Source: Desulfurococcaceae archaeon (GTDB lineage Archaea; Thermoproteota; Thermoprotei_A; Sulfolobales; NBVN01). From it: a DNA stretch of 64,000 nucleotides. Under the pieces are notes generated by a model. That model was given only the letters and a program-made list of their open reading frames with translations, did no database searches and was not told the DNA's origin. The stretch spans positions 7,359 to 71,358 of the forward strand of contig JAJHQR010000001.1 in the NCBI GenBank assembly GCA_020833255.1, given 5' to 3'. Below, in pieces: positions 9,489-45,204 of the stretch. A program made the translations under genes and the position numbers. Position 1 is the stretch's first letter, and the number at the start of each line of letters is the position of its first letter.

Positions 9489-10303
9489 GTATGGCAACAC
9501 TCAAGCTCTACCTCCTCAAACTGTTTTTAACGGCGGTAGCTTTCTCCATAACCGCTACACTGCTTTACCCGGTGGTCTACATTTTCCTCACCGCATTCTC
9601 GAGACTGCCCACGCTATCACTCGATATCTCATACTTCACTATAGAGAATTTCGTGTCCGTCATCAACGACGCAGACTTCAGGAACTCACTAATTCTAAGC
9701 TCTCTGGTTTCCGGGGCTACGGTGTTTTTAGCGTTGCTCTTCATAACGCCGGCAGCGTACGCTTTCTCTAGATTCAAGTTTAGAGGTAAGAGCACGGCGC
9801 TTTACTCCTACCTGATATTCAGTCAGGTTAGCGGCGGTTTCGGGGTGGCGTCACTAGTAGCTCTCTTCGTTTTCTTAGGTAAGCTTAACTTAGTCAGCAT
9901 ATACGTCTTACCGTTCCTGTACGTCTCAGGCATGGTCCCCTTCAATACCTGGCTCCTCAAAAACTACTTCGATAACATACCTAGAGAATTAGATGAGGCG
10001 GCTTTCGTAGACGGCAGTAGTTGGTGGACACTCATATTCAGGGTTATCCTACCATCCTCTAAAGCACCAATACTAGTGCTAGCTATATTCGCCTTCATGG
10101 GCGCGTGGTCTGAGTTCATCCTAGCCAACCTCTTCGGCTTCAGGACCTTGCCTGTCTTAATGTATAAGTACGTGGGAGCGTACACCACGTACTGGAATAT
10201 GTTCGCGGCTACGGCAATCCTCTACGCAATACCGATAATAATCATGTACATGACGGCGCAGAGATTCATAGGAGAAGCAGTTAGGATGGGTGTTAAAGGC
10301 TGA
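9485..10303 (+). CDS. sugar ABC transporter permease (MalG-like)
   Basis: EAA loop DEAAFVDGSSWWTLIFRVILP. GTG 9485 overlaps the upstream stop (GTGA); ATG 9491 is an alternative start. Confidence 0.85.
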   Translation: MSMATLKLYLLKLFLTAVAFSITATLLYPVVYIFLTAFSRLPTLSLDISYFTIENFVSVINDADFRNSLILSSLVSGATVFLALLFITPAAYAFSRFKFRGKSTALYSYLIFSQVSGGFGVASLVALFVFLGKLNLVSIYVLPFLYVSGMVPFNTWLLKNYFDNIPRELDEAAFVDGSSWWTLIFRVILPSSKAPILVLAIFAFMGAWSEFILANLFGFRTLPVLMYKYVGAYTTYWNMFAATAILYAIPIIIMYMTAQRFIGEAVRMGVKG

Positions 10304-10362
10304 AAACTTGTCAGACCTCCTGGGAACATCACCCCTCAGACGGTTGATCCCTCATCACTACA
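10303..10362 (-). ncRNA. C/D box sRNA (dual guide)
   Basis: Minus strand reads GUGAUGA-12 nt-CUGA-GGG-GUGAUGU-11 nt-CUGA-CAAGUUUU. C box is at 10352-10358, D' at 10336-10339, C' at 10326-10332, D at 10311-10314. TATA-like TTTAAACC/CTTAAAAC lies 23-30 nt upstream of the C box. Confidence 0.8.
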
Positions 10363-10517
10363 GTATAGTAAAGCTAGCCACGTTTTAAGGTTTAAAGAAC
10401 TCTCAGAACGGCCGGAACGCTTTGATGAGGGTTGTGCTGAGTTCAAGACTGCTTGAAAACACGGCCTCAGAACTTATAAGCTCCCTCACTCATGGATTTG
10501 TGGGGGAGCGGGTATTG

Positions 10518-10577
10518 AGGACGTGATGAGAGTTCCCCTTCCTGAGTCAATGATGTGTCCGACATCAACTGATTAGT
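10518..10577 (+). ncRNA. C/D box sRNA (dual guide)
   Basis: GUGAUGA (10523-10529), 12 nt, CUGA (10542-10545), GUCA, AUGAUGU (10550-10556), 12 nt, CUGA (10569-10572). TATA-like CTTATAAG at 10472-10479. The 3' end overlaps the stop codon of the convergent GT2 gene. Confidence 0.75.
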
Positions 10578-11727
10578 TCTTGTCGATTACGTAGAAGTCT
10601 TTTATAGTGGGTGCTCTGAGGATTGATGTGGCCTCGATTAACCAGGCTACGGGAGTTACCAGGAAGTATCTTAACTTCCCTGATTTGTAGGCTCCGTACA
10701 TATACGCTAGCCAGTGATATAGTGAGTTGATGATTATGAGGTAAATGACTAATGAGTTGTAGTAACCGCTCATCACCACCGTAATGATCACTAACGTGAG
10801 AGCGATCCAGAGGAAGGACTTGATAGTTATTATAGCTTTCATCAGGTTTGGGGCACGTCTCAAGTCTCTTAAGACTCCCTTAAACCACCTAGCCCTCTGT
10901 TTCTGGAGATCACTTAAGCTGTTAGGTGATTTAATGCTTACGGTAGTCTCAGACTGCCACGTCTTATAACCCCTCTTAACTAACTCAACGGCTAAGCTGA
11001 AGTCCTCGGCAATCGACGTTAAGTCGATATCGAGTTCCTTCAGGACATGACCTTTGATACCCAGTAACTCGCCGTGTAGTCCTAGGAGAGGCTTTCCTAA
11101 GAAGCCCGTGAAAAACCTGTATAAGGTTAGGTCGTTAAAATACCTTATCCAGTCGATTACGTAAGCCGTGACCGAGTTCCCTTTCCTAGGCTTTAGCACG
11201 GGGTTGAACGCGACGTAACCGAGTTCCTCGTAGTAAGGTATTTCATAAAGAAAACGATCATCTAAAACTATGTTGTCGTCGTCTAAGAAAACGTACCAGT
11301 TATCAGGTTCCACGAAGTAATCGATGAAATACTTCATAGCACGCGCCTTACCTTTACGAAACCTCGCGTATTCCTCAGGAACTACTACGAGCCTTAGATA
11401 AGGATCCGAGAAACTCATCTCACTCAAGTAATCCACTAGCTCAGCCCCCTCATCCACCACGACCCACACTAGGTAATCTCTAAACCTACTGCGCAGATTC
11501 TCTAAAGACTCTCTTAAAGCGTTCTTAACTTTGTTGTTCGCCACGGTTACTAAGACAAACTCCACCTTATCACTCTTGTAAGACTTCCTCTTAGGTTTGT
11601 AAACCATATACCCTACCGACCCGGCGATCAAGAACACGTACGTGACGGATAGGGTTATGTATATGGGTATCATGATGATTGGCTCGCTAGACAATAAGTT
11701 AGTGCCCTCATCCACCATTAACACCAT
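10573..11727 (-). CDS. membrane family-2 glycosyltransferase (processive type)
   Basis: VVVDEGAE, DxD-type FLDDDN, and QRARW (QxxRW) motif. TM helices at both ends. Confidence 0.75.
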   Translation of the reverse strand: MVLMVDEGTNLLSSEPIIMIPIYITLSVTYVFLIAGSVGYMVYKPKRKSYKSDKVEFVLVTVANNKVKNALRESLENLRSRFRDYLVWVVVDEGAELVDYLSEMSFSDPYLRLVVVPEEYARFRKGKARAMKYFIDYFVEPDNWYVFLDDDNIVLDDRFLYEIPYYEELGYVAFNPVLKPRKGNSVTAYVIDWIRYFNDLTLYRFFTGFLGKPLLGLHGELLGIKGHVLKELDIDLTSIAEDFSLAVELVKRGYKTWQSETTVSIKSPNSLSDLQKQRARWFKGVLRDLRRAPNLMKAIITIKSFLWIALTLVIITVVMSGYYNSLVIYLIIINSLYHWLAYMYGAYKSGKLRYFLVTPVAWLIEATSILRAPTIKDFYVIDKN

Positions 11728-44876: not shown

Positions 44877-45204
44877 GGGGGCGGTGCCGACTATAGCCCG
44901 TCTTCAGTACTACGGCGGCATTGAGCTTAACGGCCTACCCGCGCCTCACGCGGCTCTCATCGGCGCTGCTTGGCCTTGCTCCCGAGGGGACAGCCGTTTC
45001 AACGCATCCGCTCCCATACTCGGCGGGTTACTGACGCTTCGTTACCGAAGCGTCCTCACCGCGTCATCGACATCCGGGAGCGGCCGTGTCGTTTCTGTGC
45101 TGTTGCCGCGGGTCTCCCCGCACCCCTTACGGGGTCCTCGCGCCGCGAGGAGGACGGTGCTTCCTCAGGGGATTACCCCCGTAGCCGCCAGTCGGCTCCG
45201 CCCC
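44877..45204 (-). ncRNA. rnpB: RNase P RNA (archaeal type A)
   Basis: Minus strand: 14-bp P1 (GGGGCGGAGCCGACU / AGUCGGCACCGCCCC). GAGGAAGCACCGUCC corresponds to CR-I. GUAAGGGGUGCGGGGAG, GGGAGCAAGGCCAAGCAG (E. coli GGAGCAAGGCCAAAUAG), CGGGUAGGCCGUUAAGCUC, and ACUGAAGACGGGCUAUAG (CR-V, ACAGAAxCCGGCUUAU). About 66% GC. Confidence 0.9.

Follow-up and report, generated by a model that had tools for sequence, protein, structure and literature searches.

Between two protein genes in a 64,000-nt stretch of archaeal DNA (contig JAJHQR010000001.1; this whole stretch is hereafter the window) lies a short minus-strand sequence that a first-pass annotation read as a box C/D small RNA (sRNA) with guides antisense to the two extreme ends of 16S rRNA. 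This locus raises the question of whether the element is a guide RNA gene and, if so, which rRNA sites its two guides address. Judged from its sequence, the element is a canonical archaeal box C/D sRNA gene with what appears to be its own promoter. The guide adjoining box D′ seems to be directed at the 5′ end of 16S rRNA, in agreement with that annotation, and the guide adjoining box D is better explained as one directed at 23S rRNA.

A conserved box C/D sRNA gene

The sRNA site is the intergenic gap between an ABC permease gene and a GT2 glycosyltransferase (GT) gene. The components of the sRNA and the features around it are as follows (window coordinates).

10311..10358, minus strand: 48-nt box C/D sRNA core, box C through box D, recognized from its sequence, shuffles, Rfam and orthologs
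10352..10358, minus strand: box C, GUGAUGA, invariant in all six orthologs
10340..10351, minus strand: D′ guide, GGGAUCAACCGU, complementary to the 16S 5′ end CCGGUUGAUCCU
10336..10339, minus strand: box D′, CUGA, invariant among orthologs
10333..10335, minus strand: linker, GGG; ortholog linkers are 3-4 nt and vary in sequence
10326..10332, minus strand: box C′, GUGAUGU, with UGAUG invariant among orthologs
10315..10325, minus strand: D guide, UCCCAGGAGGU, positions 4-11 conserved and 1-3 variable
10311..10314, minus strand: box D, CUGA, invariant and followed by CAAGUUUU
10383..10397, minus strand: A/T-rich TATA-like element, CTTTAAACCTTAAAA, at the same distance in every ortholog; putative promoter
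10303..10306, minus strand: U4 tract 3′ of box D, a possible termination signal
ending at 10303: ABC permease gene, convergent
10573..11727, minus strand: GT gene

Boxes, guides, linker and spacers on the minus strand are exactly as the first-pass annotation gave them, with spacers of 12 nt (D′ guide) and 11 nt (D guide) and a D′-C′ linker of 3 nt. The whole C/D′/C′/D pattern occurs at one site in the 64-kb window and at none in 100 dinucleotide-preserving shuffles. The TATA-like element that had been noted upstream is present as the blocks TTTAAA (10396-10391) and TTAAAA (10388-10383), 25-38 nt upstream of box C; a matching block stands in all six orthologs and may serve as a promoter. Likewise, the U4 tract is found downstream of box D, where it may act as a terminator; the ortholog sequence aligned with it is T-rich and not conserved. 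The transcript probably spans from ~10366 to ~10303 on the minus strand.

A search of Rfam with the sRNA yielded nothing above threshold, and the sub-threshold matches were all archaeal C/D families, among them sR14 (RF01145; 26.9 bits against a threshold of 38) and snoPyro_CD (RF00095; 22.7 against 45). Low scores are to be anticipated here, since each Rfam C/D model is specific to its guide. The element has the terminal C and D boxes, internal D′ and C′ boxes, spacers of ~12 nt, rRNA-complementary guides and conserved cores by which archaeal box C/D sRNAs are recognized. Its guides also reach the 8-9 bp expected as a minimum for such RNAs, with 11 bp between the D′ guide and 16S and 8 bp between the D-guide core and 23S of related operons.

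The host is an uncultured Zestosphaera-like crenarchaeon (Desulfurococcaceae). Homologs of the flanking GT are named Zestosphaera sp. or Desulfurococcaceae, and an identical copy of the sRNA locus is found on a JGI hot-spring metagenome contig. We located orthologs by synteny with the GT gene and found the sRNA at the same genomic position in six lineages, including that of the window. These are listed below with their guides and with the identity of each GT protein to that of the window.

Window, L001 and L168: D′ guide GGGAUCAACCGU; D guide UCCCAGGAGGU
L181 (GT identity 93%): D′ guide GGGAUCAACCGU; D guide UCUCAGGAAAU
L002-L011 (81%): D′ guide GGGAUCAACCGU; D guide UCCCAGGAUGU
L184 (81%), from Logan SRR25243437: D′ guide GGGAUCAACCGC; D guide UCCCAGGAGGU
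L182 and L183 (79%): D′ guide AGGAUCAACCGG; D guide UCCCAGGAAUU
L015 (77%): D′ guide GGGAUCAACCGC; D guide UCCCAGGAUAA

In the alignment of these sequences, no variation is seen in the boxes, in ten D′-guide bases (GGAUCAACCG) or in seven of the eight positions from 4 to 11 of the D guide. The flanks of the orthologs are mostly unalignable, save for the upstream A/T-rich block that resembles a TATA element. Invariant boxes and guide cores amid diverged flanks are the signature of a functional guide RNA. In two more distant lineages (L012-L014; GT identity 63-66%) the sRNA is missing at the corresponding position.

The D′ guide matches the 5′ end of 16S rRNA

The 64-kb window contains no rRNA genes. 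As reference rRNA we used five related operon types that are 95-100% identical to one another, and nucleotides are numbered for Ignicoccus hospitalis and E. coli according to the alignments in the supplement of PMC4644070. In all five types the 16S rRNA starts with ...AAAACCGGUUGAUCCUGCCGG and ends with ...GGAUCACCUCC, with UU or UUU separating that end from a downstream GGGAGGUACGG; their 23S rRNA contains GAUGUCGGCUCUUCCCAUCCUGGGGGUG.

In a scan of whole operons, leader and spacer included, the D′ guide pairs with the 16S 5′ end through 10 Watson-Crick (WC) pairs and one G-U pair over guide positions 2-12. This site is the unique best target in the L165, L169 and L171 operons, where the next-best sites reach at most 7, save for one 23S site of the L171 type. 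In the published alignments of seven archaea and E. coli (PMC4644070), the sequence GUUGAUC is confined to the 16S 5′ end and absent from 23S. Furthermore, the D′ guide of the L182 ortholog (AGGAUCAACCGG) has changed at both end positions and is a 12/12 WC complement of CCGGUUGAUCCU. Such a change toward the perfect complement is what a real target predicts.

The position at N+5 from box D′ is the first U of GGUUGA, corresponding to U8 in I. hospitalis and U13 in E. coli. This is the nucleotide that the first-pass annotation had named, the first U of the UU. Its broader claim that the D′ guide is antisense to the 16S 5′ terminus is borne out by the invariant core, the unique best target, the perfectly complementary ortholog and a counterpart in I. 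hospitalis, sR155, described below. The assignment of the D′ guide as a conserved guide against the extreme 16S 5′ end holds at the level of sequence comparison.

In the L171-L175 and L179 operons, a second GGUUGAUCC lies inside the 23S gene, ~870 nt after the 16S 3′ end (position 4097 of L171). This lineage-specific 23S site, GUGGUUGAUCCA, can form 9 WC and two G-U pairs with the D′ guide and is absent from the other four operon types.

The conserved core of the D guide matches 23S rRNA

Only positions 4-11 of the D guide are conserved (UCCCAGGA; UCUCAGGA in L181). This 8-nt core complements UCCUGGGG in 23S rRNA (E. coli 2519-2526), with C2520 at N+5, where the duplex has a G-C pair. Each operon offers one perfect site for the core, 23S CCCAUCCUGGGG, which is identical in the five operon types. 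The L002 variant of the guide extends the pairing to 9 WC pairs and one G-U pair over positions 2-11 with CCAUCCUGGGG, its unique best match. By free-duplex energies, four of the five D-guide variants prefer the 23S site; the variant in the window is the exception.

The window's pairing with 23S satisfies a published prediction rule, under which a duplex may have one mismatch and up to two G-U pairs but no bulge (PMC4644070). Duplexes of 8-10 bp were optimal in vitro and gave high methylation, according to Yang et al. (2016) as cited in PMC7089733. Two other targets for the D guide were considered and rejected. The 16S helix 23 sequence ACUCCUGGGG is absent from these operons, and the 23S sequence ACCUGCUGGGA forms 10 WC pairs with the guide, yet its mismatch falls at N+5.

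The match to the anti-Shine-Dalgarno sequence is not conserved

The first-pass annotation took the D guide to be antisense to the 3′ end of 16S rRNA, including the anti-Shine-Dalgarno sequence ACCUCCU. The complementary sequences that it gave, ACGGUUGAUCCC (D′ guide) and ACCUCCUGGGA (D guide), are arithmetically right. Among the lineages in the order listed above, D-guide positions 3-2-1 read GGU, AAU, UGU, GGU, AUU and UAA. The bases that would pair with the ACC of ACCUCCU are the least conserved of the whole sRNA, and the anti-Shine-Dalgarno sequence itself does not vary. A conserved anti-Shine-Dalgarno D guide is not supported, given this free variation and the perfect match of the conserved 8-nt core to domain V of 23S. 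Whether both guides would prove conserved in relatives had also been asked; the D′ guide is, and the D guide is not at its ACC-pairing positions.

The 16S 3′ junction of the relatives reads ACCUCC-UU-GGGAGG or ACCUCC-UUU-GGGAGG, with one or two extra U residues. The GGGA that the first-pass annotation proposed to look for after the mature 3′ end is present in relatives but out of register by the extra U, and ACCUCCUGGGA follows the 16S 3′ end in none of the five related operon types. Against these junctions the window D guide has a contiguous duplex of 7 bp; allowing a mismatch or bulge brings the number of paired positions to 10 of 11. For the UU junction, the irregularity is a bulged U or, alternatively, a C x U mismatch at position 8. 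With a hypothetical single-U junction, ACCUCCUGGGAGG, the calculated energy would be -22.5 kcal/mol.

The D guide is best explained, on these comparisons, as a conserved 23S guide with drifting end positions, and not as a conserved guide to the 16S 3′ end. Drift to GGU in the window lineage would have turned an ancestral AGGA-NNN into AGGAGGU, the anti-Shine-Dalgarno complement.

It had further been suggested that one RNA might clamp both 16S termini or read across the ligation junction of a circular pre-16S intermediate formed by bulge-helix-bulge (BHB) splicing. Cofolding of leader and trailer gives a long processing stem with a BHB-like irregularity ~27-35 nt from the mature ends. Because this motif lies so far out, both target sites would be at the foot of the stem and would not directly flank the ligation junction. 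The 5′ UGAUCC and 3′ GGAUCA of 16S are themselves mutually complementary and cofold as an extension of the leader-trailer stem (L171, L165 and L169). The GGAUCA in the core of the D′ guide mimics the 3′ strand of this end-to-end pairing.

Proposed mechanism and alternative explanations

We consider it probable that the element is an ordinary double-guide sRNA, with its D′ guide directed to the 16S 5′ end, its D guide directed to 23S, and 2′-O-methylation at N+5 of each duplex. As is typical of its family, the sRNA would assemble with L7Ae, Nop5 and fibrillarin, and the two spacers of 11-12 nt would act as independent guides. The D′ guide would pair with 16S nucleotides ~4-15 (CCGGUUGAUCCU), which form the 5′ strand of helix 1 and contribute loop nucleotides of the central pseudoknot, and its duplex would be expected to direct 2′-O-methylation of U13 (E. 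coli). The D guide would pair by positions 4-11 with 23S UCCUGGGG near the peptidyl-transferase center, placing C2520 at N+5. Since the D′ duplex covers the helix 1 strand and the pseudoknot loop, it is incompatible with the mature fold and would act on nascent 16S rRNA. As long as the guide is bound, neither helix 1 nor the central pseudoknot could close. It is therefore plausible that the RNA serves nascent pre-16S as a transient chaperone, in a manner like that of U3 box A′/A pairing, and such roles for archaeal double guides have been proposed earlier (PMC4644070; PMC7994747).

Several observations weigh against this double-guide reading. Position 3 of the window D guide forms a G x A mismatch with 23S, leaving 7 WC pairs and one G-U pair as the contiguous duplex. 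A guide pair divided between 16S and 23S is also rarer than one with two nearby targets. Moreover, the calculated free-duplex energies of the window D guide, with a bulged U at the pre-16S junction of relatives, are -18.7 kcal/mol with the UU form of that junction and -17.1 with the UUU form, against -16.8 with the 23S site. The GGU variant occurs in two lineages (those of the window and L184) that are not sisters on the GT tree. The targets are deduced from related operons, which are tied to the sRNA lineages only by co-occurrence in metagenomes. Finally, expression and methylation in the host are predictions from sequence.

The mismatch could in principle be offset by a compensatory change in the host 23S, where A2518 (E. 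coli) is invariant in an eight-species alignment (PMC4644070). When a genome collection was scanned with a pattern carrying a compensatory A-to-C change, GATGTCGGCTCN{2,8}CCTCCTGGG, only bacteria and Aenigmatarchaeota matched; this pattern assumes GGCUC and misses the I. hospitalis sequence GGCUUUUCC, making the lack of Desulfurococcales matches an unreliable negative. A metagenome scan for the compensatory variant GGCTYTYCCCCTCCTGGG gave 0 matches, in a collection that may not include the metagenomes of the window. We regard this null result as weak evidence against a compensatory 23S change.

An alternative is that the pre-16S 3′ end and trailer (ACCUCCU-GGGA) have captured the D guide from 23S in two lineages, those of the window and L184. 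One small ribonucleoprotein would then hold both pre-16S ends at the base of the processing stem, as a chaperone or processing cofactor that perhaps methylates C1538 (E. coli), and the conserved 5′ guide would be a functional analog of U3 box A that prevents helix 1 and the central pseudoknot from closing in early 30S assembly, instead of methylating or in addition to it. The window D guide is an exact 11-nt complement of ACCUCCUGGGA, GGGAGG does follow the 16S 3′ end in relatives (one or two U out of register), and with a UU trailer every guide position except the mismatched position 8 would pair (10 of 11), within the published prediction rule. The junction duplex equals or exceeds the 23S site in energy, the two target sites are adjacent at the foot of the stem, and two lineages share the GGU variant. 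Under naive independence, GG twice in six draws has p ~0.05; given six related taxa and fast-evolving positions, this recurrence is not compelling. The pairing is impossible in four lineages out of six, the evolution of its three critical bases resembles that of unconstrained flank sequence, the in-register sequence occurs in none of the five operon types, and bulges are not tolerated in standard guide-target models. The resemblance is also cheap by chance, as it takes one substitution (U-to-G or A-to-G) in AGGA[U/A]GU to create it, and a bare 7-nt match is expected ~0.3 times per guide in a 4.7-kb operon. We judge such retargeting to be quite unlikely.

It is likewise unlikely, in our estimation, that the window D guide has decayed to the point of directing no efficient methylation and that the sRNA is kept for its D′ guide, whether for methylation, chaperoning or both. 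The mismatch at position 3 leaves 8 contiguous pairs at a growth temperature of at least 80 °C, where the predicted duplexes are weak (-6.6 kcal/mol for the window and -3.3 for L181). Positions 1-3 drift in every lineage, L181 has changed within the core (UCUCAGGA), and orphan guides have been described in a review as products of accumulated mutations (PMC7994747). Nonetheless, the core is kept across six lineages (seven of eight positions invariant) amid scrambled flanks, which points to selection, and the 8-10 bp duplexes reported by Yang et al. (2016; cited in PMC7089733) were sufficient in vitro. That the whole element is a chance or decaying C/D-like sequence without function is very improbable. 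Every Rfam score is under the gathering threshold, as is to be expected of guide-specific models; the pattern was never met in shuffles, and six lineages have intact boxes with a promoter-like A/T block at a fixed distance. The reading as a double-guide sRNA for 16S and 23S accordingly remains the one that we favor.

Related rRNA operons and neighboring elements

A pattern for the wild-type 23S site matched at least 120 operon loci in metagenomes. The samples of the window are not among the matches listed; these do include the L119 operon, whose metagenome also contains the sRNA locus L004, and the L165, L058 and L155 operons, which are of the same clade, its members being 95-100% identical to one another. 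We also searched for operons through their neighboring genes. A VirB11-like ATPase gave 5 matches on short contigs, and UPF0148, encoded downstream of 23S, gave 6 matches that led to the complete operons L169 and L171-L175. The sample series of L176 is that of the window, and the sample of L169 is that of L014 and L182. No operon from samples 3300045883 or 3300045887 was among those reached through flanking proteins, and a blastn comparison showed no overlap between the window and any of the operon loci.

The surroundings of these operons have several recurrent features. A structured stretch of ~300 nt resembling signal recognition particle (SRP; 7S) RNA follows the rRNA operon (~5300-5700 in L165; also in L058, L155 and L171). 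Beyond it, a conserved UPF0148 Zn-ribbon gene lies on the opposite strand in the Zestosphaera-like clade, and an archaeosine TGT gene is located upstream of 16S in L171-L175. An AT-rich block adjoins the operon in L058 (6246-8637), L155 (5195-8481) and L171 (2485-5678). Its genes include those for a TFB-like Zn-ribbon protein and a VirB11/T2SSE-type ATPase, along with small open reading frames, and transposase fragments lie nearby. The block has very few protein-database homologs (5 matches) and has the appearance of an integrated mobile or viral element.

Close to the sRNA studied here, in the same intergenic region, lies another box C/D sRNA.

10523..10572, plus strand: second box C/D sRNA, GUGAUGA GAGUUCCCCUUC CUGA GUCA AUGAUGU GUCCGACAUCAA CUGA

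This RNA abuts the stop codon of the GT gene and lies on the strand opposite the studied sRNA, divergent from it at a distance of 165 nt. All eight lineages have retained it, and a conserved TTATAAG is found ~45 nt upstream. The core of its D guide matches 23S GAUGUCGG, with E. coli U2504 at N+5, and that of its D′ guide matches 23S AAGGGGAAC, with position 2568 at N+5. Both matches are in the peptidyl-transferase region of 23S, as is that of the studied D guide. Similar drift affects positions 1-2 and the distal end of the guides in the second sRNA, and such drift seems to be normal in this genus.

Elsewhere in the window, the minus strand encodes a full-length archaeal RNase P RNA at 44882-45200 (Rfam RF00373; 203 bits). 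The 64-kb window has no tRNA genes.

Comparison with known systems

Large repertoires of double-guide C/D sRNAs are carried by hyperthermophilic crenarchaea, to which the present RNA, on the favored reading, adds one more. The closest counterpart of its D′ guide comes from I. hospitalis, a member of the same order (Desulfurococcales), whose sR155 is an expressed box C/D sRNA with an RNA-seq coverage of 1200 (Dennis et al., 2015; PMC4644070). The D guide of sR155, GGGAUCAACCGG, is essentially identical to the window D′ guide and is perfectly complementary to nucleotides 4-15 of I. hospitalis 16S rRNA. The two RNAs differ in that this guide occupies the D position in sR155 and the D′ position in the window, and in that the partner guide of sR155, CGUGCUUUAGGUCG, is unrelated. 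Both sR155 guides are listed as 'NP', with no predicted target (PMC4644070), although the 16S match satisfies the prediction rule of that same study. A guide family for the 16S 5′ end thus appears to be conserved in Zestosphaera and Ignicoccus, to which the I. hospitalis catalog gave no target.

A guide to the 5′-terminal region of 16S is not new in kind. Published guides for the first ~20 nt are sR19 of Pyrobaculum calidifontis and, in Methanopyrus kandleri, sR31 and sR23 (whose D guide has U12 as its predicted target), which are likewise complementary to helix 1 or the 16S 5′-terminal region. These RNAs have other registers, target nucleotides and backbones, and belong to other phyla or orders. 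The Rfam families sR14 (RF01145) and snoPyro_CD (RF00095) share the box architecture and spacing of the window sRNA, and the D′ guide of sR14 is partly similar to that of the window (CGGAUCUACGG versus GGGAUCAACCG). Both are Pyrococcus (Euryarchaeota) families, however, and the window sRNA scores below both cut-offs. For the D guide, drift at positions 1-3 can yield a striking but non-conserved complementarity, here to the anti-Shine-Dalgarno sequence.

A more distant parallel is eukaryotic U3, an RNA of the box C/D class that binds the 5′ segment of small subunit (SSU) rRNA homologous to the window D′ target. The GGAUCA complement is common to U3 and the window D′ guide. In U3, box A′/A pairs with 18S nucleotides 6-22 (GGUUGAUCCUGCC...), to the exclusion of the central pseudoknot (PMC4340053). 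U3 differs in pairing through a dedicated 5′ domain, not through a spacer next to box D or D′, and in directing no methylation. It also binds the 5′ external transcribed spacer and 18S nucleotides 1139-1143, is equipped with B/C boxes and proteins of its own, and is indispensable for cleavages. The window RNA, at ~55 nt, has nothing beyond its C/D′/C′/D core, and so neither a U3-type 5′ domain nor B/C boxes. The likeness to U3 is an analogy of presumed action and not membership. Nevertheless, the SSU segment under the D′ guide is exactly the one masked by U3 in eukaryotes, which makes this guide family a testable candidate for sRNA-assisted formation of the central pseudoknot in archaea.

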